Positions 13,400 through 55,361 of a stretch of DNA of 64,000 bases are shown one piece after another (the stretch's first letter is position 1; every line of letters begins with the position of its first letter). The stretch comes from Escherichia phage vB_EcoM_G2494. The notes under the pieces are model-generated. The model was not told the origin of the DNA and searched no databases. It saw only the letters and a program-made list of their open reading frames with translations. The stretch lies in the sequence record MK327935.1, one strand, 5' to 3'. The position numbers and the translations under genes were made by a program.

Positions 13400-13608
13400 A
13401 ATGCACCATCGAGCAATTGCTCTAAGGTGTATCCTGAATAGTCTTTTTCAATCAGGATATATTTTCCTACTCGTTTAATACAACCGCGCATTTCAACGTA
13501 TTCTGCGTAGTTGATGGTACGAGTTGTTCCATCTTCCAGTAATGCAGTACCGATTTCGTTAATGCGGTCATAAGTTACGTCGGTAATGATGATTTCGATG
13601 TTAGCCAT
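13396..13608 (-). CDS. hypothetical early protein (70 aa)
   Basis: ORF with RBS, own promoter cassette upstream. Confidence 0.55.
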   Translation of the reverse strand: MANIEIIITDVTYDRINEIGTALLEDGTTRTINYAEYVEMRGCIKRVGKYILIEKDYSGYTLEQLLDGAL

Positions 13609-13644
13609 TTGATACTCCTTAGTAGTTCGTTTCTGTATGTGTGT

Positions 13645-13673
13645 ATTATGATATACACCCTCTGTTATGTCAA
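13645..13673 (-). promoter_or_regulatory. sigma70-like early promoter (TTGACA-17-CATAAT)
   Basis: minus-strand TTGACA at 13673-13668, 17-bp spacer, CATAAT at 13650-13645. Confidence 0.6.
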
Positions 13674-13679
13674 CAACTT

Positions 13680-13859
13680 TTAGAACATTTTTGAAATTAA
13701 TTCTGCTTTGATTTCGCAGAGAACATCTAAAGATTTCTCGTCACCCGCTTTTGCTGCTTCTGCTTGCATTTTTGAAATGGCTTCAATCTCAGTGCAATTA
13801 TAAGCCGCTTGAACTTTAGCGATTGCGAGGATTGCCGATTCGATGGTTAAGTGTTTTAT
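13680..13859 (-). pseudogene. small ORF (~59 codons) with ATA in the start-codon position (decayed start or AUA initiation)
   Basis: cassette RBS GGAGAATCAAAC followed by ATA where paralogous cassettes have ATG; first in-frame ATG leaves only 29 codons. Confidence 0.35.
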
Positions 13860-44042: not shown

Positions 44043-44050
44043 TATAAATA
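44043..44050 (+). promoter_or_regulatory. T4-type late promoter TATAAATA upstream of gene 34
   Basis: exact TATAAATA 29 nt upstream of ATG; AAGGAG RBS. Confidence 0.65.
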
Positions 44051-44078: not shown

Positions 44079-47000
44079 ATGGCAGATTTTTCTCAACATT
44101 TCAAGGCCACATTTGGCTTTGACGCTGGTAATGAAAAGGTCGTCAATGTAGCATTGGCTGATAAGAATGTCAACACCGATGCGGTCAACGTTGAATTTTT
44201 CAATTACCATAATGGTATTACTCAGTATGACACAACTCGCGGTTATGATCAATACGGAACTACAATCTATCAAAACCGCCCGTATTATGCAAAAGAAGAT
44301 ATCGCAAAACCAGCAGGTGACTTTGACCCGACTAAATGGCAAGCACTGCGCACGGACCCACGTTGGGATTATGTTGCAGCAACTTCCGGCGATACTCCTT
44401 TAAAGTCCGGTGATTATATCGCAGCGGACTGTCAGTTTGCAAACTTGACATTCTCAATGCCTACTAATCCGGCAGAGGGCGACACTATAACAGTAAAAGA
44501 TATCGGTGGCAAGTGTGGTGTTAATGAGTTATCGTTCCTTGCGGCTGGTCATGAGTTCTATCATAACGGTAATGTGTATAACCGCAAATGGTATTGCACT
44601 ACCCCGTATGCAATGAACTATTTCATCTTTGTTCGTAATCGTTGGCATGTTTATCAGACAGGAACAGAGCCACGCGGTGTGTACGCACAGCCAGCGATTG
44701 ATGCTATTCAAATGCAGAATGGTGATCAGGTATTCCGCCGTAGTTCTTTGGGTAACATTGTTTTGATGCTTCCTAAGTTTGCTAATAACGGTGATATGAT
44801 CCAGACTACCGATCTTGACGGATTGACTGCAACCAACCATGTTACGGTAAAAGTGCATGAAGGTGCGCAAGAACAATCGATCGGTACTTTCGGGGTAAAA
44901 GAAATTGTTGGTAAGCGTAGCGGTCATGGTGTATTCATATTTGACAAACCGGAAAACTTATGGCGTTTGTGGGATGGTGATCAGTCTGTTCGCTTGAATC
45001 CTATCATTAGTGATACTCGCTTATCCCCTAATAGCTATGTTGCAGTATTTGGTGATCGTGATGTTACCTTGACTTTACCGACCAATGTCGAGCCGGGTGA
45101 TCGCATTCAAGTTTCTATGCAGTATATGCACGGAAACCAGACTTGCCGAATCATTACCTCAGAAGAGGATACAAAAATCCTTATGCAGAAAAACATGGTT
45201 CAGTTTCCTAAGCGTAGCGAGTACCCATTCAATGGGACCGATACATGGAGTGGAGTGTCTGAATTGTCTTTCAACGCTGCAAATGATTATGTACCTTATC
45301 TGGAGTTCTCTTATTCAGAAGGTGATGATGGTAAGAAATACTGGTTGGTGGCACATGCTCACCCGATTGTAGAACGAGTAGATCCGACTCGTAAAGATCG
45401 TGTTGGTGTAATTGCACTGGCTACCCAGGATGAAACAAACAAAAACCATGAAGATAATCCTAGCGACGAAGTTGCGGTGACTCCAAAGGTTCTGGCTAAT
45501 AAAACAGCCAACGAAACTCGACGCGGTATTGCTCGCATTGCAACTCAAGCGGAAACGCATCAAGATACTGGTTCCAGCTTCCTGGATGATGTTATCGTTA
45601 CGCCTAAAAAGTTAAATGATTGTGTTGCTACCGAAGCCCGTCGTGGTGTAATGGAAATTGCAACTCAACATGAAACCAACGAAGGTTTAGACGATACTCG
45701 CGCAATAACTCCTAAGAAGTTAGAAGAACGTCGCGCTTCCGAAGATCTCGCTGGTATTGCTGAAATTGTTCAGGTTGGCGGTAGTGCTTCCGCTCGACGT
45801 GGCGAAGCTGGTACAGGGATCTATAACATCAACGACCATGCTAAAATTGTTACGCCACAAAACATCAACGAAGTCAAGGCGACCGAAACTTCCCGTGGTG
45901 TTGGCTATCTGGCAACTGACGCGGAAGTGCAAGGGGCTACAGAATCAACCCCGCAAGATGCTTTACTAATCACGACTCGCACGCTAACGAAGCGTACTGC
46001 TACAGAATCGCGTACTGGTATCGCTGAAATTGCAACTCAGGAAGAAACAAACTTAGGTCAAAGTGATAACCATATCATCACGCCTAAAAAGCTGCATAAT
46101 CGCCGCGCAACGGAAACTTTACACGGTTTAGCAGAAATTGCAACTCAGTCGGAATTTGACGCAGGTCGTGACGATGCTCGCATTTCTACCCCATTGAAGA
46201 TTAAAACCTTCTTTGAGAATGCACAGCGTTTGAAAGTAGATCCGACTCAGGGGCTTAACCTTACGGGTGACTTGTGGCAAGGTATCATGATCAGCGGTCT
46301 TGATGCAACCGAAGACACAAAAGGTGTCGCTAAAGTTGCTACTACTCAGCTTACGGATGTTGGTCAAGATGATACTACAATCATCACTCCTAAAAAGCTG
46401 CAAGGCAAAAAGGCCACCGAAGGTAAAGAAGGTATTATCCGAGTTGGTACTCAAGCCGAAACCGTGGCTGGTACACTGGCTAATGTAGCAATTTCTCCGA
46501 AGAACTTCAAATATGTTGTTCAGACAGAGGATACATGGAAAGCAACCGAAGCGCGTCGTGGATTCTTGAAAGTTGCTACTCAGGAAAACTGTTTTGTTGG
46601 TGATAATCTGCAAGGTTCTACTCAAGAACTAGGAAACTACCAGCATGACGGAATTGCTGTTACTCCGAAAGGATTAAACTACGCACTTGCTAATTTCTTA
46701 CCTAAGATGGCAACCGCTCAGAATAGTTTGAAATTGGGTAACGTAGAGGCCGCTAAATGGGCGCGTAGAGACATTGACCAGATCATAGAGAGCAATTACA
46801 CGTTTAATAAAAACGTTAACGTGAAGGGCGATTTAGAGTGCTTAAAATCTGGTTCCTTTGAAACTCTGTCTGTGACTAAGAACTCTACTGATGATCTGAG
46901 TAATGGTCATCTGGTGTTGGGTGAGCGTGGAGTTGACGGTCACACCGGAATTACTCTGCATGGCACAACCGCATCGGAAGGTATGGAAAACTCATGGTCT

Positions 47001-47819
47001 ATTATCGTTGGTGGTACTGGAACAGCGCAAGTCGTTGATAGTGATGCTATCGCTTTCGGTAAAATCAGTGATGGTGGAGTCGTCGAGCATTACTCCTTTG
47101 CTATGGAACATGACGGCGATGCGTTAGCCTATAGAGACTTTATTGCAGGTCGTAACCTGTATGCGAAACAAGGCGGTTTATACATTGTTGACCAGTCTAA
47201 TCCGGCAATGACTCGTTCCCCAGATGGTATGCTGAATATCGGTCACGGTGGAAGTGTTAACATCAAGGCAGGTCATCAAACGTTAACTACAGAGATCGCC
47301 GGACAGAAATATCAGATCGTCCACGCAGGAAACGCAGACGAAGTTCTTAACCGTCAGTTTGTTAAGAATGCTGGCGATACAATGGTCGGTAAGCTGACTA
47401 TGGATAATGCGCCTATTGTTTCTGTTAAGCATGAAGCTAGCGCGGCAACCGCTCCGGCAATCGGTAACATCGGTTTCTGGAACATGCGAGTAACTACCCA
47501 AAACATCAAAGAAACCTATCCAGAGAAGAAAAACGGCACATTGATGCAATGGGGTACTGATGAAAACGGCCTTACCCAAATCTGGTCACCTGATGGTACT
47601 CATAAACATTATATCCGTTCCGGTACTGGTGGTCAATGGACCGCATGGGGTGAAATTTACACCAAACAGAATAAGCCTACCGCTCAGGAAATCGGGGCAG
47701 TAGTTGCAGAAGGTGGTTTAATGAACTCTATGACGGTTCGTGATTGGATCAAAGTTGGTAATGTTAAAATCATCGCCAATAATCTGACTCGTACCGTAGA
47801 CTTTATCTGGGAAGACTAA
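44079..47819 (+). CDS. 34: long tail fibre proximal subunit gp34
   Basis: 1246 aa; repeated ...ETRRGIAEIATQ.E... units and C-terminal VRDWIKVGNV...DFIWED match T4 gp34. Confidence 0.9.
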   Translation: MADFSQHFKATFGFDAGNEKVVNVALADKNVNTDAVNVEFFNYHNGITQYDTTRGYDQYGTTIYQNRPYYAKEDIAKPAGDFDPTKWQALRTDPRWDYVAATSGDTPLKSGDYIAADCQFANLTFSMPTNPAEGDTITVKDIGGKCGVNELSFLAAGHEFYHNGNVYNRKWYCTTPYAMNYFIFVRNRWHVYQTGTEPRGVYAQPAIDAIQMQNGDQVFRRSSLGNIVLMLPKFANNGDMIQTTDLDGLTATNHVTVKVHEGAQEQSIGTFGVKEIVGKRSGHGVFIFDKPENLWRLWDGDQSVRLNPIISDTRLSPNSYVAVFGDRDVTLTLPTNVEPGDRIQVSMQYMHGNQTCRIITSEEDTKILMQKNMVQFPKRSEYPFNGTDTWSGVSELSFNAANDYVPYLEFSYSEGDDGKKYWLVAHAHPIVERVDPTRKDRVGVIALATQDETNKNHEDNPSDEVAVTPKVLANKTANETRRGIARIATQAETHQDTGSSFLDDVIVTPKKLNDCVATEARRGVMEIATQHETNEGLDDTRAITPKKLEERRASEDLAGIAEIVQVGGSASARRGEAGTGIYNINDHAKIVTPQNINEVKATETSRGVGYLATDAEVQGATESTPQDALLITTRTLTKRTATESRTGIAEIATQEETNLGQSDNHIITPKKLHNRRATETLHGLAEIATQSEFDAGRDDARISTPLKIKTFFENAQRLKVDPTQGLNLTGDLWQGIMISGLDATEDTKGVAKVATTQLTDVGQDDTTIITPKKLQGKKATEGKEGIIRVGTQAETVAGTLANVAISPKNFKYVVQTEDTWKATEARRGFLKVATQENCFVGDNLQGSTQELGNYQHDGIAVTPKGLNYALANFLPKMATAQNSLKLGNVEAAKWARRDIDQIIESNYTFNKNVNVKGDLECLKSGSFETLSVTKNSTDDLSNGHLVLGERGVDGHTGITLHGTTASEGMENSWSIIVGGTGTAQVVDSDAIAFGKISDGGVVEHYSFAMEHDGDALAYRDFIAGRNLYAKQGGLYIVDQSNPAMTRSPDGMLNIGHGGSVNIKAGHQTLTTEIAGQKYQIVHAGNADEVLNRQFVKNAGDTMVGKLTMDNAPIVSVKHEASAATAPAIGNIGFWNMRVTTQNIKETYPEKKNGTLMQWGTDENGLTQIWSPDGTHKHYIRSGTGGQWTAWGEIYTKQNKPTAQEIGAVVAEGGLMNSMTVRDWIKVGNVKIIANNLTRTVDFIWED

Positions 47820-48992: not shown

Positions 48993-49003
48993 CATTTTTA
49001 ACA

Positions 49004-49034
49004 AGCCGATCCATGTGGTCGGCTTTATTTTTAT
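49004..49034 (+). terminator. rho-independent terminator after gene 35
   Basis: stem AGCCGA.../...TCGGCT followed by TTATTTTTAT. Confidence 0.55.
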
Positions 49035-49150: not shown

Positions 49151-49196
49151 TTCTATAAATACTCGGAACTATAACTAATTTTTTTGAGGTTACTTT

Positions 49197-50687
49197 ATGG
49201 CAGATTTGAAATATGGATCTACTGTAGGCGGATCTCCCATTTGGACGCAAGGAAACTTGACGATCCAGCCAGCGGGGGATCAGCTTTTCTACAAAGGTCA
49301 TAAAATCTATACCGCTTTTGATAGACCTTCGGCTACCGATTTTGATGCTGTTAGTGCATCCGAAGGTGGCACATTTCAAAAGCAAGTTCATTTCGAGGAA
49401 GGTTTAAGCGTAGGTAGCGCATCGGCTGGAGAAACCAAAAAGAACGGGATCTTTAAAGGAAAGAGCGATGCTGCTAACTTTGATGGTGTAAGTTGGGGTC
49501 TGCATTCGTGGAAATCCATTGGTTTTGTTAATGCTCGTGATGATGTTATCATGGCTTATATTGACACTACCACAGGTGATTTTAAAACTAAAGGGACCAT
49601 CGAAGGGACAACCATTAAAGACACTGGTCAACGCGTCTATAGTCCTGTTAATAAGCCGACAAACAATGATTTGGATTTGGTGTCTCGTCGCGGTGATACT
49701 CTCACGGGAACGTATAATTTAAACACGGCTACATTTAAACTTGATGTTAATTCGAAAATACTTGCGCGGGATCGTGGTTTCATTGCTTTCGATTCTAATG
49801 CCATTTATTTTGGAAATAGTCTTGATACTTTGGCATTCAGTAGCAAAAACGAGCCGACAATTTCTGTTAATGGCAAGGCAGGTAGATTCTACCACACCAA
49901 CAATAAACCGACTAAAGCCGATGTTGGACTAGGTAATGTCACCAATGATGCACAGGTTAAACGTGCTGGTGATATTATGGAAGGCAACTTGCAAGCGCCT
50001 AGAATGTTGGCGACAAACGATCCTGCTGGTCCTAATGAATTGGTTCGTTTGAGCTACTTTGAGAGAAAATCAATGGTAGCAAATCCAACAATCATTGGAA
50101 ACGTTGATTGGAACACTCTTATTAATCGCGGTATCTATCGTGTGGAAAATGCTGGATCAGGTACTAATAAACCGTCTGATAGCTATTATAACGGCGTTTT
50201 GATGGTATATCGCCCAGAAGATGCGGTCGGTACTCGTCGAATTGTTCAGGTATACTATCCTGAATCTATTGATCATCCGATGTGCTGGCGTTCTTGTTCT
50301 AATGAATCATGGACTGCATGGAACTATGTAGATCACCGTAAATTGGCTGATATTCGCTATGTTAACGTCACTGGCGATACCATGACAGGACCGTTAACTG
50401 TTCCGGCGGCAAATGGCGTTCATACCGCAGAAGCTAACTATAATGGTGATAATTGCTACGCTGGACTTAATAGCTTAAATGGCACAGCAATGATTCATCG
50501 TGTTAGTGATATTAAAGCGCACGAGAAACTAGGCATCACACATGATTCTAAAATTATTTTCGTTAAATCACGCAACAATACTCAGGACACCGATACATTT
50601 GAATTATACCACGAAGGACACAAACCAACTCCTGATGATGTTGGCGCTGTTCCGCTTAATGCGGTAATTGATTTTGGTACTTTCTAA
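49197..50687 (+). CDS. 36: long tail fibre distal connector gp36 (enlarged, 496 aa)
   Basis: N-terminus MADLKYGSTVGGSPIWTQGN matches T4 gp36 but protein is more than twice as long. Confidence 0.75.
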   Translation: MADLKYGSTVGGSPIWTQGNLTIQPAGDQLFYKGHKIYTAFDRPSATDFDAVSASEGGTFQKQVHFEEGLSVGSASAGETKKNGIFKGKSDAANFDGVSWGLHSWKSIGFVNARDDVIMAYIDTTTGDFKTKGTIEGTTIKDTGQRVYSPVNKPTNNDLDLVSRRGDTLTGTYNLNTATFKLDVNSKILARDRGFIAFDSNAIYFGNSLDTLAFSSKNEPTISVNGKAGRFYHTNNKPTKADVGLGNVTNDAQVKRAGDIMEGNLQAPRMLATNDPAGPNELVRLSYFERKSMVANPTIIGNVDWNTLINRGIYRVENAGSGTNKPSDSYYNGVLMVYRPEDAVGTRRIVQVYYPESIDHPMCWRSCSNESWTAWNYVDHRKLADIRYVNVTGDTMTGPLTVPAANGVHTAEANYNGDNCYAGLNSLNGTAMIHRVSDIKAHEKLGITHDSKIIFVKSRNNTQDTDTFELYHEGHKPTPDDVGAVPLNAVIDFGTF

Positions 50688-50754: not shown

Positions 50755-53535
50755 ATGGCAGATTTACAGAGAATCCAATTTAAAAGAACAAGTACGGCAG
50801 GTCGCAAGCCGGATGCGAATATTCTAACTCCGGGTGAACTTGCTATTAACCTAGCGGATCGAGAACTATATACAAAAGATGACAGCAATAATGTAATTAC
50901 TTTGGGACACTTTCGCGGTGAGTTGCCATCTGATGCAAATTTAGATAATTATGGACCTACTGGTAAATTTACTGGCGTTTGGTCTAAATCAACTTCAACA
51001 AATGCGCAGCCAGCAAATAAATTCCCAGAAGAGAATGCTGTAGGTGTATTAGAAGTATTTGTGGCTGGTCAATTTGCTGGCACTCAGCGTTATACTGTTC
51101 GGTCTGGTAACGTTTATATCCGTTCTTTGTCTGCGAAATGGAATGGCGTAGATGGTCCATGGGGTCCGTGGCGCAATATTCAAACTGGCACACGTCCACT
51201 ATCAACTACACTAGACTTGAATACTTTAGGTGATGCTTCTCATTTTGGGTTATGGCGAAATAGTTCAAGTTCCATTGCATCATTTTCTCGAAATTACCCA
51301 GAAGAAGGTGGTCTCGCGCAAGGTCTTTTAGAAATTTATGAAGGTGGTAACTATTCTCGCACGCAACGTTATACTACCCGAATGGGTGTTGTATATGTTC
51401 GTTGTCTTGCTGGTGCATGGGATCCAGAAGCTCCGAATTGGGGACCGTGGCAACAAGTAGGTATGGTTACTCCCAACACATTCTATGACGGGGATCTTAA
51501 TAATTTTCGTTCTCCTGGCTTATATAATATTTTAGGCACTGATGCCGTTATTAACCGTCCAGTTGCAGAAGGTGTTCCGGTTGAGATGACCGGATTGCTT
51601 GAGGTTAAACAGCGTGCTTCCGGTGGCGCTATTTTCCAACGTTTCACTACCGCAGGAACGGGATCTACTACCCGTGGTCGTGTTTTTGAACGTGCAATGA
51701 CAAATAATATCTGGGGAAATTGGCATGAAGTATATACATCTTATTCTCTGCCAATTACTTTGGGTATGGGTGGTATTAAAACTCAATTAGCGGAGCTAGA
51801 TTGGCAAACATTTGATTTTGTTCCTGGTAGTATGTTTAGCGTTCCTTTGAACAAAATAAAGAACATGCCAGCAAATATGGATTGGGGTGCGATTGACGGA
51901 AACTTGGTTATGTTTTCTGTCGGTCCTAGCGAACACACTAGCACAGGGCGTACTGTTCAGGTTTGGCGTGGTACTGTATCCCAGACAAACTACCGTTATT
52001 TTGTCGTTCGTGTGTTCGGTAATTCTGGAAATAGAACTTGTACAGTTCGCCGTGTTGTTCTTGAAGACGGATCACATACTTGGACTGCTAAACAAGATTT
52101 TAATGGTGCTGTCAACTTTGGTGGTTCGACAACTTTTAAGTCCACTACAACTTTTAACACAGAAGTTAAATTCCGTTCATCCAATGCATTTAAAATGTAT
52201 GGCGGTAATTTTGGCACAATTTTCCGTAATGATGGTGAAAGTCTTTATATTCTTTCCACCGACGAAAATGATCAAGATGGAAACTTTAATACAAATAGAC
52301 CTTTCCGCTATCAATTAAAAACTGGCGATGTTACTTTGGGTGGCACTAGCGGTGCTAACGCTTTAGTATTAAAAGGCGGTTCTCTTGCTGCTACCTTTAG
52401 CGGTGATGTTAATTTAAGTAAAGGTACGCTGACGTTTGAAGCGGGTGGTAAGCAATCACGCGATTATTTCCGGTTTAATCATTGGGGTGATAGCAATAAC
52501 GCTCGTGATAACATTATTCAGTTAGAAGATAGTAAAGGCGCTCATTTTTCCACTGAACGTACTTTAGCGACTGGTGCAATTAAAACTAAATTCTTTGGTG
52601 AAGTTGAATCAACTGGTCGATTGACTATTAAACGTCCGGGTGGTGCTATTGTATTATCGACTACAGCCAGCAACGCTTTGCATATTCGCGGTGACGTAGA
52701 CGGGAATGGTAACTGGTATATTGGTAAAGGTGGTGCTGATAATTCGCTAGCATTTTATAGCTATGCTACTCAGGCGGCAGTACATATAACAAACAATGGT
52801 GAGATTGCGTTAAACCCGCAAAATACCTTAATGGTTAACGTTAACCGCGATCGTATGTATATCAATGGTGCAAGTTGGGTTGCCAGACAACCAGGTGATT
52901 GGGGCAACCAATGGCGAGTAGAAGCTCCATTATTCGTTGATCATGGTTATGTTGGTCAAGATAGTTATTATCCTATTCTTAAAGCAAGAAGCGTTATAAC
53001 CAATCAAGGATATAGCACCGCTGTTGACTTTGGTATGCGTCGTATTCCATCACAGTGGGGGCAAGCAATCATTCGTGTCGGATCCACGGAGGCTTCTCCT
53101 GATGCTGGACACCCACAAGCTGTGTTTGAATTCCATCATGATGGGTTCTTTTATACACCAGGAAATGGTAGCTTTAGCGATGTGTATATTCGTTCTGACT
53201 CCCGTCTTAAGATTAATAAAGAAGAGTTAGAAAACGGAGCACTTGAAAAAGTATGCCGTCTGAAAGTTTATACTTACGATAAAGTTAAGTCTATTAAAGA
53301 TCGTAGTGTGATTAAACGTGAAGCTGGTATTATTGCTCAGGATCTTGAAAAAGAATTGCCGGAAGCTGTATCTAAAGTTGAAGTTGATGGATCTGATGTT
53401 CTGACAATTTCTAACTCGGCAGTGAATGCTCTTTTAATTAAGGCTATTCAGGAAATGAGTGAAGAAATTAAAGAATTGAAAACTCCTTTCTTTACTAAAA
53501 TTGCTCGCAAAATTAGTAAATATTTTAAATTCTAA
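50755..53535 (+). CDS. 37: long tail fibre distal subunit gp37 with C-terminal intramolecular chaperone domain
   Basis: N-terminus IQFKRTSTAGRKPDANILTPGELAINL matches gp37; last ~113 aa SDSRLK...GIIAQDLEKELPEAV...LLIKAIQEM resemble the S74 self-cleaving chaperone domain. Confidence 0.8.
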   Translation: MADLQRIQFKRTSTAGRKPDANILTPGELAINLADRELYTKDDSNNVITLGHFRGELPSDANLDNYGPTGKFTGVWSKSTSTNAQPANKFPEENAVGVLEVFVAGQFAGTQRYTVRSGNVYIRSLSAKWNGVDGPWGPWRNIQTGTRPLSTTLDLNTLGDASHFGLWRNSSSSIASFSRNYPEEGGLAQGLLEIYEGGNYSRTQRYTTRMGVVYVRCLAGAWDPEAPNWGPWQQVGMVTPNTFYDGDLNNFRSPGLYNILGTDAVINRPVAEGVPVEMTGLLEVKQRASGGAIFQRFTTAGTGSTTRGRVFERAMTNNIWGNWHEVYTSYSLPITLGMGGIKTQLAELDWQTFDFVPGSMFSVPLNKIKNMPANMDWGAIDGNLVMFSVGPSEHTSTGRTVQVWRGTVSQTNYRYFVVRVFGNSGNRTCTVRRVVLEDGSHTWTAKQDFNGAVNFGGSTTFKSTTTFNTEVKFRSSNAFKMYGGNFGTIFRNDGESLYILSTDENDQDGNFNTNRPFRYQLKTGDVTLGGTSGANALVLKGGSLAATFSGDVNLSKGTLTFEAGGKQSRDYFRFNHWGDSNNARDNIIQLEDSKGAHFSTERTLATGAIKTKFFGEVESTGRLTIKRPGGAIVLSTTASNALHIRGDVDGNGNWYIGKGGADNSLAFYSYATQAAVHITNNGEIALNPQNTLMVNVNRDRMYINGASWVARQPGDWGNQWRVEAPLFVDHGYVGQDSYYPILKARSVITNQGYSTAVDFGMRRIPSQWGQAIIRVGSTEASPDAGHPQAVFEFHHDGFFYTPGNGSFSDVYIRSDSRLKINKEELENGALEKVCRLKVYTYDKVKSIKDRSVIKREAGIIAQDLEKELPEAVSKVEVDGSDVLTISNSAVNALLIKAIQEMSEEIKELKTPFFTKIARKISKYFKF

Positions 53536-53571
53536 CAACAAGGGGGCGTTGCCCCCTTTGGAGTATAAATT

Positions 53572-54372
53572 ATGGCAGTAGTTGGTGTTCCTGGTTGGAT
53601 TGGAAGTTCAGCCGCAAATGAAACAGGACAACGATGGATGAGTCAAGCGGCTGGTCAATTAAGATTGGGTGTTCCTTGCTGGATGAGTCAATTTGCAGGT
53701 CGCTCGCGAGAAATTATTCATACTGTAGGAGCAAACCACAATTTTAATGGTCAGTGGTTCCGTGATAGATGCTTTGAAGCTGGCGGTGCACCTATTGTAT
53801 TCAATATTGTTGGTGATATCGTTTCTTATTCTAAAGATGTACCGCTTTTCTTTATGTATGGTGACACTCCTAACGAATACGTTGTCCTTAATATTCATGG
53901 TGGTGTCCATATGTGGGGTCGAGGTGGTAATGGTGGATACACTCACTCAGGTGGAGATGGTAACGGTACACAAGGCGGTCATGTTATTCAAAATGATATC
54001 GGTGGACGGCTTCGTATTTGGAACTACGGTGTTATAGCTGCTGGCGGTGGTGGCGGTGGTGGTATTGCATATCGTCCACACTCAGGGGCAAACTGGCAAG
54101 ATATCGGTGGCGGTGGCGGTCGACCTTTCGGTGGTGCTGGCGGTGGCGGTTATTCCGGTGGTGCTGCTTCTTATGAAGGTCCGGGTGGTGGTTACAACTA
54201 TGGTAACGCACACTCCGGCGCGGGTGGTAATGCTGGCGCTGCTGGTCAGAATGCATGGTCTGATGGCGGTAAAGTTCTTAAAGTTGGTGTTGGTGGTGCT
54301 TCTGGTCATGCCGTGTTTGGATCTTCTCCAACTTGGGGCGCTGTAGGGACAATTTATGGACCTTACATTTAA
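53572..54372 (+). CDS. 38: gp38 receptor-recognising adhesin (T2-type, glycine-rich motifs)
   Basis: N-terminus [45 protein letters not shown]; several GGGGGG motifs separating variable segments. Confidence 0.8.
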
Positions 54373-54431
54373 CCGTTAAAAAAGAATTAAGGAAAAATCC
54401 CAGGGAAGGGAACTACTAAGGAGAAACGGCT

Positions 54432-54704: not shown

Positions 54705-55361
54705 ATGCAAGTTTCTGAAAAAGGGAAAGACTTTGCTATCTCAAATGTCCTGCGCGCTATTTTCACAACTAAAAGCACGGAGTTGCTCGTACTTCGTGTT
54801 TTTGCTGCCGTCGTGTTGTCCATATTAGCATTTGTCGTTTATAGTAAAAACGAGTTATTTGCGCTTTATAAAGAGACTCGTTATGAGACTTATGCTCACA
54901 TTCTCCAGGTAGAGAAAGACCGCAATTTTGATAATGCAGCACAGGAGCAGTTACAGATAGTTCATGTGTCGGCTGATGCCGATTTTTCTGCTGTTTTTAG
55001 TTTTCGTCCGAAAAACCTAAACTATTTTGTTGATTTGGTGGCATATGAAGGAAAGCTACCTCACACAATCGATGAAAAAAATTTAGGCGGATTCCCTATC
55101 AATAAAACGAGTGAAGAATATCGTAGGCATCTTTTAGGTAAATCATATTTTACCGATAAAGATTTCCAGTATATTCCATCAAGAGAAAAGAAATTAGAGA
55201 ATATCGATATAGGGTTTATGTATTCTTGCCCTATATTCAATCTCGATAATGTCTATTCTGGTAGTATCGCCATTGCATGGAAGAATAAACCGGATATTGA
55301 CATTGAGAATTTAGATACTCTTTGCAATCAATCTGCCAGAATCCTCGGAAGGATTAGATAA
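54705..55361 (+). CDS. t: holin t
   Basis: 218 aa; LQIVHVSADADFSAVFSFRPKNLNYFVDLVAYEGKLP and YSCPIFNLDN match T4 holin. Confidence 0.9.
   Translation: MQVSEKGKDFAISNVLRAIFTTKSTELLVLRVFAAVVLSILAFVVYSKNELFALYKETRYETYAHILQVEKDRNFDNAAQEQLQIVHVSADADFSAVFSFRPKNLNYFVDLVAYEGKLPHTIDEKNLGGFPINKTSEEYRRHLLGKSYFTDKDFQYIPSREKKLENIDIGFMYSCPIFNLDNVYSGSIAIAWKNKPDIDIENLDTLCNQSARILGRIR

Follow-up and report, generated by a model that had tools for sequence, protein, structure and literature searches.

Among the known systems closest to the locus studied here are the distal ends of the long tail fibres of the phages Ox2 and S16. The C-terminus of Ox2 gene 37 and Ox2 gene 38 were reportedly the work of the Henning laboratory in 1987-1991, and the structure of the S16 gp37-gp38 tip complex (PDB 6F45) is said to come from Dunne et al. 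in 2018. The arrangement of a gp37 carrying an intramolecular chaperone domain together with a gp38 adhesin was already familiar from T2 and Ox2 in the 1980s, and its structure has been solved for S16. In Salmonella phage S16, gp37 loses its last 113 residues by autocleavage at DLNVS^SDRRIKK; for other T-even fibres, the published cleavage site is DVYIR^SDGRLKI (PMC7917993). C-terminal autocatalytic processing of T2 gp37 is documented by Drexler 1986, as cited in PMC3157838. The gp38 of S16 docks on the gp37 trimer by three tryptophans, and the adhesins of this family bear no sequence relation to gp38 of T4, which is a chaperone (PMC6851490). Glycine-rich motifs alternating with hypervariable segments are the known architecture of gp38 (PMC3157838).

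The window, i.e. the whole stretch of 64,000 nucleotides that was analysed, belongs to a Krischvirus, an RB49-like coliphage. The features of its distal fibre region are as follows.

49197-50687, + strand: g36, 496 aa, genus-typical long form (ORF list)
50755-53535, + strand: g37, encoding the distal subunit of the long tail fibre as a precursor of 926 aa and about 102 kDa (ORF list)
50755-53193, + strand: predicted mature part of gp37 (aa 1-813, about 89 kDa), with ...GSFSDVYIR as its last residues (junction alignment with homologues, computed masses)
50917-54362, + strand: T-even-type g37-g38 cassette in a Krischvirus backbone (88% nucleotide identity to Tequatrovirus ESh29)
53194-53532, + strand: predicted intramolecular chaperone and autoprotease domain at the gp37 C-terminus, aa 814-926, about 12.8 kDa (PF13884)
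53194-53211, + strand: SDSRLK, in which Ser814 (53194-53196) is the predicted nucleophile and Lys819 (53209-53211) the predicted general base
53542-53556, + strand: G+C hairpin, GGGGGC-GTT-GCCCCC, located after the stop codon of g37 and before the Shine-Dalgarno sequence of g38
53572-54372, + strand: g38, predicted receptor-recognising adhesin of the Ox2 type, 266 aa (Pfam GP38, Gp38_N)
53572-53697, + strand: gp38 N-terminal attachment domain, aa 1-42 (PF21721)
53935-54291, + strand: predicted gp38 specificity region, with variable segments and glycine-rich motifs (column entropy, 84 homologues)

The C-terminal domain of gp37 and its predicted cleavage junction

Positions 53194-53535 (+ strand) encode the last 113 of the 926 residues of gp37 (SDSRLKINKEELE...IKELKTPFFTKIARKISKYFKF) plus the stop codon at 53533-53535, and g38 starts directly downstream at 53572. 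The sequence-only reading had claimed that these residues resemble the chaperone of endosialidase-type tail spikes and had proposed a profile search for Peptidase_S74 as a check. The hmmscan search against Pfam found Peptidase_S74 (PF13884) on gp37 aa 814-872 with an E-value of 1.3e-11 and a score of 45.0 bits, twice the curated cut-off of 22 bits. The match covered model positions 1-57 of 58, and model position 1 falls on Ser814. This serine opens the domain and Lys819 stands five residues on, which is the spacing of the catalytic dyad; the dyad S587/K592 of MyRF is equivalent to S911/K916 of endoNF (PMC8326128). With the profile match and the dyad in place, the claimed resemblance was borne out, and the assignment of the gp37 C-terminus as a Peptidase_S74 intramolecular chaperone domain with a Ser/Lys dyad is supported.

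Alignments were consistent with this assignment. SDSRLK of gp37 pairs with ADLRAK in 7DC3, the structure of MyRF S587A, SDxRLK was found in every homologue spanning the junction, and the downstream motifs YTYDKVKS and GIIAQDL are invariant though the upstream shaft sequences of the homologues are unrelated. The domain shares with the C-terminal chaperone of endoNF (PDB 3GW6) and the MyRF ICA (7DC3) the Ser-Lys dyad, its five-residue spacing, its position at the domain start and the placement at the very C-terminal end of a trimeric beta-helical fibre, and a G-[VI]-IAQ-[ED] motif is common to MyRF and gp37; the similarity is distant and at the family level only. Of these two, the PDB sequence searches brought up MyRF alone, with a weak match (E=0.035-0.6). 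A PDB profile search with the gp37 C-terminal alignment gave only S16 gp37, the tail fibre 8JOV and MyRF; endoNF (3GW6) and T5 pb1 were not among its matches. The homologue search with a 146-aa C-terminal fragment of gp37 returned 20 close proteins, mostly partial, a set with too little depth for good structure modelling.

The gp37 junction reads DVYIR^SDSRLKI, with the predicted scissile bond between Arg813 and Ser814; it is nearly identical to the published site of other T-even fibres and lines up with the autocleavage site of S16 gp37. As in S16, a 113-aa C-terminal chaperone domain would be cut before an SDxxxK motif, and the S16 gp37 construct 6F45_A was matched with an E-value of 2e-5 by the domain alone and 6.8e-9 with the profile. 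The differences from S16 are the low identity of the chaperone domain, the residues before the cut (DLNVS in S16, DVYIR here) and the specificity loops of gp38. The chaperone domain is identical to that of Ox2 gp37 (X05675) at 110 of 113 residues (97%), including the KTPFFTKIARKISKYFKF tail, whereas the mature part of gp37 before the junction has diverged further; over the last 251 residues of gp37 the identity is 82% overall. By analogy with the homologues T2 and S16, it is probable that gp37 of this phage is cleaved.

Alternatively, the domain might be a decayed, non-cleaving S74 relic kept on the fibre, with gp38 acting as an assembly chaperone like T4 gp38. Such a view could draw on the fact that cleavage of this gp37 is deduced from its homologues, and on the AlphaFold2 monomer of gp37 aa 781-926 (18-sequence alignment; mean pLDDT 38, pTM 0.25), a model that we discarded because of its mean pLDDT of 38. 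However, the domain retains Ser814, Lys819 and every core motif and is 97% identical to that of Ox2, and gp38 falls in the adhesin family by its Pfam domains (PF05268, PF21721) and its PDB matches (6F45_D, 9V85). We find this alternative scarcely credible and regard the domain as a putative active chaperone.

Elsewhere in gp37, trimerisation domains were matched by Pfam Gp34_trimer and gp37_trimer (weak). Three repeats in its N-terminus were seen only by direct alignment and were not detected when the N-terminus was compared with itself by BLASTP. At the amino acid level, gp37 is 79% identical to that of Tequatrovirus ESh29 and 91% identical to that of Krischvirus FL04.

The gp38 adhesin, its variable segments and its predicted receptor

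The gene after g37 had been read as a T2-type gp38 with glycine-rich motifs, and this agrees with the presence of both Pfam domains and three tryptophans in a complete ORF. By hmmscan, GP38 (PF05268) was found on gp38 aa 47-265 (E=1.2e-65) and Gp38_N (PF21721) on aa 1-42 (E=1.5e-19). PDB matches were 9V85, the RBD of PP01 gp38 (E=3.4e-62), and 6F45_D, the gp38 of S16 (E=1e-43), which is likewise monomeric with three Trp prongs, a beta-helix and a polyglycine sandwich. Trp9 and Trp22 are each kept in 82 of the 84 homologues; Trp37 is present in 70 and replaced by Tyr in 10. The glycines G116-G121, G135-136, G159-162, G182-G187, G205 and G222 are invariant in these homologues, and stretches of high column entropy separate the invariant glycine runs. 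These data place gp38 in the T2/T6/Ox2 class of adhesins, specifically the Ox2 type; Ox2 gp38 has the same length of 266 aa. By tblastn, a second copy of gp38 or of the chaperone domain was not found within the 64-kb window. As in T2, S16 and Ox2, gp38 is probably a component of the virion.

A gp37 with a self-cleaving folding domain followed by an Ox2-type gp38, as proposed by the sequence-only reading, is thus a supported and apparently correct description of the locus, and the biology is already known. We consider it highly probable that, as a whole, the fibre tip is made by self-cleavage of gp37 and docking of gp38, the loops of which bind the receptor. The g37 product would be a distal half-fibre precursor of about 102 kDa, the last 113 residues of which form an endosialidase-type chaperone. 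Three gp37 chains would fold and interdigitate first, and in each of them Lys819 would activate Ser814 for an attack on the Arg813-Ser814 bond, so that the 12.8-kDa domain would be released after trimerisation and a blunt trimeric tip ending in ...DVYIR would result. A single gp38 monomer may use its N-terminal helical domain to dock on this tip, Trp9, Trp22 and Trp37 each filling one of three equivalent gp37 pockets, and the polyglycine-sandwich loops of gp38 would face the host receptor. The domain assignments, the catalytic residues, the architecture of the adhesin, the place of its variation and the mosaic origin of the cassette can be read from the sequence comparisons; the gp37:gp38 stoichiometry of 3:1 and the identity of the receptor would be as in the homologues T2, S16 and Ox2.

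Hypervariable segments had been placed over the whole of g38 (53572-54372). That gp38 varies was correct, but column entropy over the 84 homologues showed that the variation is confined to discrete stretches, at about aa 122-134, 165-178, 191-196, 207-215 and 226-240. Compared with Ox2 gene 38 (X05675), gp38 is 95% identical with 13 differences. Its specificity domain (aa 116-250) is 98% identical to that of the OmpA-specific Ox2 gp38, 83-84% identical to those of FL08 and AV119, 44-49% identical to those of the Tsx binders T6 and FL04, and less than 50% identical to those of the OmpA binders M1 and FL18. By experiment, FL08 and AV119 are OmpA-dependent and FL04 is Tsx-dependent (PMC12032242). 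Since its specificity domain is 98% identical to that of Ox2, OmpA is the most likely receptor of this phage.

A receptor other than OmpA, such as Tsx, OmpC, OmpF or LPS, might be used with the same fibre assembly if substitutions in the variable loops had changed the specificity. Three of the 13 differences from Ox2 (N174K, G193R and N209D) lie within variable segments, and single substitutions or a few point mutations are known to alter receptor use in gp38 adhesins (PMC3157838, PMC12032242); OmpA is therefore a prediction and not a result. Against such a change stand the 98% identity to Ox2 and the 83-84% identity to two OmpA-dependent phages, as well as the less than 50% identity to Tsx binders. 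We regard a different receptor as unlikely and retain OmpA as the predicted one.

Host range had been proposed to be set probably by the variable segments of gp38. Divergence from Krischvirus FL04 is confined to gp38 aa 166-240, and 54067-54290 is the sole block in the fibre operon of this phage that shows no nucleotide similarity to FL04, which agrees with the proposal. It could be argued that host range depends mainly on the shaft of gp37, on the short tail fibres or on defences inside the cell, because an identical Gp38 can go with different infection patterns (PMC12032242, Fig. 3 legend). On the other hand, the receptor can be predicted from the phylogeny of the adhesins across three genera (PMC12032242), and the fibre operon differs from that of the Tsx-dependent FL04 only at gp38 aa 166-240. 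We consider a main role of these other factors very improbable, and a host range set by the gp38 variable segments remains the preferred reading.

The g37-g38 cassette and its surroundings

The g37-g38 cassette, about 3.5 kb in size, is 88% identical to DNA of Tequatrovirus ESh29 over 50917-54362, and collinearity with RB49 ends at 50882 and restarts at 54379. On the left, g34, g35, g36 (496 aa) and the first 43 or so codons of g37 are collinear with RB49 at 93%; on the downstream side, the small ORF and the holin show 99% identity to RB49. A Peptidase_S74 domain (NDVYIR^SDARLK) is likewise found at the end of RB49 gp37, but that protein is 979 aa long with a largely unrelated distal part, and no g38 follows it; the g38 homologue of RB49 sits elsewhere in the genome (PMC3157838). 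The Ox2 locus resembles this one in its intergenic hairpin and in the order of its genes, g37-g38-t, and differs in that this phage has a 79-aa RB49-type ORF between g38 and t and a Krischvirus instead of a Tequatrovirus backbone. An intergeneric transfer of the g37-g38 cassette is well supported by these comparisons.

Intergeneric transfers of this kind have already been described, and the cassette itself is already in GenBank. In the Krischvirus G5211 (MK327947.1), whose backbone and gene order match those of this phage, a single base differs in 3618 nt of g37-g38 DNA, while the remaining region is only about 96.5-96.7% identical. In the G5211 record, the GGG run at 53667-53669 (window positions) is one G short and g38 is therefore annotated as two CDS; its gp37 is annotated merely as a hypothetical protein. 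The discovery value of the locus is thus small, and its use lies in annotation and receptor prediction: gp37 can be annotated as processed, with the predicted cut between Arg813 and Ser814, and gp38 as an Ox2-class adhesin probably binding OmpA. The locus also provides a clean natural example of exchange at two scales, that of the whole g37-g38 cassette between genera and that of the HVS2-4 block alone, as seen against the Tsx-dependent FL04.

The hairpin at 53542-53556 lies 5' of the g38 Shine-Dalgarno sequence GGAG (53560-53563). Its RNA fold has an energy of -17.3 kcal/mol (z=-2.3), and its stem is conserved and its loop variable in Ox2, ESh29 and FL04. As an intrinsic terminator it was rejected, since it was not called by a terminator scan and the stem is followed by just three U residues. 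The tail of the gp37 chaperone domain (aa 909-926) is amphipathic and basic, and is restricted to the Ox2-type lineage. One could imagine that both are functional parts of the cassette, the hairpin setting a 3:1 expression of gp37 and gp38 and the tail guiding assembly, an idea that we consider quite improbable; if it were true, hairpin and tail would travel with the cassette between Tequatrovirus and Krischvirus genomes.

The gp36 encoded upstream had been called unusually long. Its length of 496 aa stands, but it is the norm of Krischvirus and unusual only in comparison with T4: RB49p250 has the same length of 1491 nt, and the long form is covered to at least 80% in 72 phage records, so that gp36 was dismissed as a special feature. 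T-even gp36 matches only the first 110-180 or so residues. The late-promoter motif TATAAATA was found upstream of g36 at 49154-49161.

The sequence-only reading, in which gp37 (the distal subunit of the long tail fibre) ends in a self-cleaving chaperone-like domain and is followed by gp38 (the receptor-recognising adhesin at the fibre tip) as host-range determinant, was real as an observation and right in interpretation, with four refinements: an Ox2-type adhesin with OmpA as predicted receptor, discrete variable segments, a genus-typical gp36 and a T-even cassette. The mechanism, the family and essentially the exact sequence of g37-g38 were known already.

The long tail fibre operon

The gene neighbourhood at 53194-53535 is a long tail fibre operon of the T4 family, and the source genome belongs to Krischvirus (RB49-like, Straboviridae). 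The genes are as follows:

44079-47819, g34, 1246 aa
47853-48992, g35, 379 aa
49197-50687, g36, 496 aa
50755-53535, + strand, g37, 926 aa
53572-54372, g38, 266 aa
54432-54671, ORF of 79 aa between g38 and the holin gene, without a Pfam match
54705-55361, holin gene t (Pfam Phage_holin_T, E=2e-61)

A terminator-like hairpin with a T-run lies downstream of g35 (49003-49025), and T4-type late-promoter motifs (TATAAATA) lie upstream of g36 (49154-49161) and of g34 (44043-44050), an arrangement that suggests one late transcription unit for g34-g35 and another for g36-g37-g38. A 6-bp G+C hairpin, GGGGGC-GTT-GCCCCC (53542-53556), sits after the stop codon of g37 and before the ribosome-binding site of g38; its stem is conserved in Ox2, ESh29 and FL04, with a variable loop. 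It was rejected as a canonical terminator because just three U residues follow the stem; possible roles are stabilisation of the mRNA or damping of g38 expression.

The best overall match is Escherichia phage vB_EcoM_G5211 (MK327947.1), with about 96.7% identity across 24 kb. Over g37-g38 the two differ by one base in 3618 nt, GGG at 53667-53669 being GG in MK327947.1, where the missing G breaks g38 up into two genes, one for a hypothetical protein of 37 aa and one for an adhesin truncated at its N-terminus; this is probably a homopolymer sequencing error of that record.

The window is collinear with RB49 (93%) from g34 through 50882 (about codon 43 of g37) and again from 54379 (99%), directly past the g38 stop codon; in between, similarity is found in two short patches only, one of them the C-terminal domain of gp37. 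Similarity of 88% to Tequatrovirus ESh29 extends from 50917 to 54362. The phage thus has an RB49-type backbone into which a g37-g38 cassette of T-even type, some 3.5 kb long, is set. The gp37 of RB49 (979 aa) also has a Peptidase_S74 end (NDVYIR/SDARLK, slash at the junction), but RB49 lacks a g38 adjoining g37 (PMC3157838). The 79-aa ORF, mildly hydrophobic at its N-terminus and acidic at its C-terminus, is a homologue of RB49p252/Dc5, which in RB49 sits where T-even phages have g38. Krischvirus phages with gp38 beside the holin are known (PMC12032242).

The 496-aa gp36 had been called unusually long. This holds against T4-type gp36 (about 220 aa; PMC3157838), but not within the genus: RB49p250 is equally long. 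Coverage of the window gp36 reaches 80% or more in 72 phage records, whereas T-even gp36 matches no more than about its first 110-180 aa. The length is a genus trait and no peculiarity of vB_EcoM_G2494. By tblastn, the middle of gp36 (49635-50000, aa 146-269) weakly resembles RB16 gp37 and the side tail fibre proteins of siphoviruses that are unrelated, which hints at a shuffled fibre module.

The C-terminal domain of gp37 and its predicted cleavage

Translation of 53194-53535 (+ strand) gave 113 aa and a stop codon, identical to the sequence quoted beforehand and forming the C-terminal end of the 926-aa ORF. By hmmscan, aa 814-872 match Peptidase_S74 (PF13884) over model positions 1-57 of 58 (E=1.3e-11; 45 bits, curated cut-off 22 bits), bearing out the resemblance to an intramolecular chaperone, and on this homology we assign the gp37 C-terminus (aa 814-926) to that class. 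Ser814 is both model position 1 and the first residue of the interval, and Lys819 follows five residues later within SDSRLK, the same spacing as in the catalytic dyads of endosialidase endoNF (S911/K916) and MyRF (S587/K592) (PMC8326128). Phmmer aligned SDSRLK to ADLRAK in 7DC3, the MyRF S587A crystal construct, and the whole C-terminal region aligned to the S16 gp37 chain of 6F45 (E=2e-5 alone, 6.8e-9 with a profile). Among 18 aligned homologues, shaft sequences upstream of the junction are unrelated between groups and conservation begins at NDVYIR/SDxRLKIN, with YTYDKVKS, GIIAQDL and EAV invariant.

S16 gp37 is autocleaved at DLNVS^SDRRIKK with removal of the final 113 residues, and other T-even fibres have DVYIR^SDGRLKI at the counterpart position (PMC7917993); the window gp37 reads DVYIR SDSRLKI, and its C-terminal part is likewise 113 residues. 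For T2 and T6, proteolytic removal of the gp37 C-terminus and subsequent capping with gp38 are described as long established in PMC3157838, which cites Drexler et al. 1986. We infer that gp37 of vB_EcoM_G2494 would be cleaved too, leaving a mature protein of ~89.2 kDa and setting free a domain of ~12.8 kDa (computed masses). An AlphaFold2 monomer model of aa 781-926 had a pLDDT of 38, too low to confirm the fold.

The domain ends (53518-53532 region, aa 909-926) in a basic amphipathic tail, KTPFFTKIARKISKYFKF, common to Ox2, ESh29 and FL04, whereas RB49 and the other homologues lack it and end in a coiled-coil-like AELAELK sequence. Near the N-terminus, aa 56-340 (50920-51775) comprise three tandem repeats of ~90 aa each with the pattern DLN..G...W....P.E...G.LE....QR.T...G.V..R....WG.W, visible in direct alignment only and undetected by BLASTP self-comparison. 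In the distal fibre they probably form knobs or collars.

The gp38 adhesin and its predicted receptor

That a T2-type adhesin follows gp37 was confirmed by the Pfam families GP38 (E=1.2e-65) and Gp38_N (E=1.5e-19), which together span gp38, and by matches to two solved structures, the PP01 gp38 receptor-binding domain (9V85, identified as such in PMC12892980; E=3.4e-62) and S16 gp38 (6F45_D; E=1e-43). S16 gp38 docks onto the gp37 trimer through three tryptophans (PMC6851490), and these have counterparts here in Trp9, Trp22 and Trp37. Of 84 homologues, 82 share Trp9, 82 share Trp22 and 70 share Trp37.

The type can be narrowed: gp38 is 95% identical (tblastn) to gene 38 of phage Ox2 (X05675), both being 266 aa, and of the 13 substitutions all but N174K, G193R and N209D lie outside the variable segments. 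We place it by sequence in the Ox2 class. The specificity-domain identities point to OmpA as the predicted receptor.

Table. Identity to window gp38 in the specificity domain (aa 116-250) and N-terminal domain (aa 1-46); receptors of FL08, AV119, FL04 and FL18 were assigned by experiment (PMC12032242)
Phage (receptor); specificity domain; N-terminal domain
Ox2 (OmpA); 98%; 96%
FL08, AV119 (OmpA type 1); 83-84%; 52-57%
FL04 (Tsx); 49%; 100%
T6 (Tsx); 46%; 96%
M1 (OmpA); 45%; 100%
FL18 (OmpA type 2); 44%; 28% (record without N-terminus)

Column entropy over 84 homologues revealed invariant glycine runs (G116-G121, G135-136, G159-162, G182-G187, G205, G222) separated by high-entropy stretches (about aa 122-134, 165-178, 191-196, 207-215 and 226-240), the layout of glycine-rich motifs and hypervariable segments (HVS) described by Trojet et al. 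2011 (PMC3157838). The hypervariable segments of gp38 therefore occupy ~53935-54291 rather than the whole gene (53572-54372).

Compared with the Tsx-dependent Krischvirus FL04, the operon is collinear throughout except at 54067-54290 (gp38 aa 166-240), which is exactly HVS2-HVS4 and, against 13489-13708 of FL04 (L004), the sole block of the tail fibre operon without nucleotide similarity. This pattern points to recombination restricted to the specificity block, a natural exchange of that block by itself.
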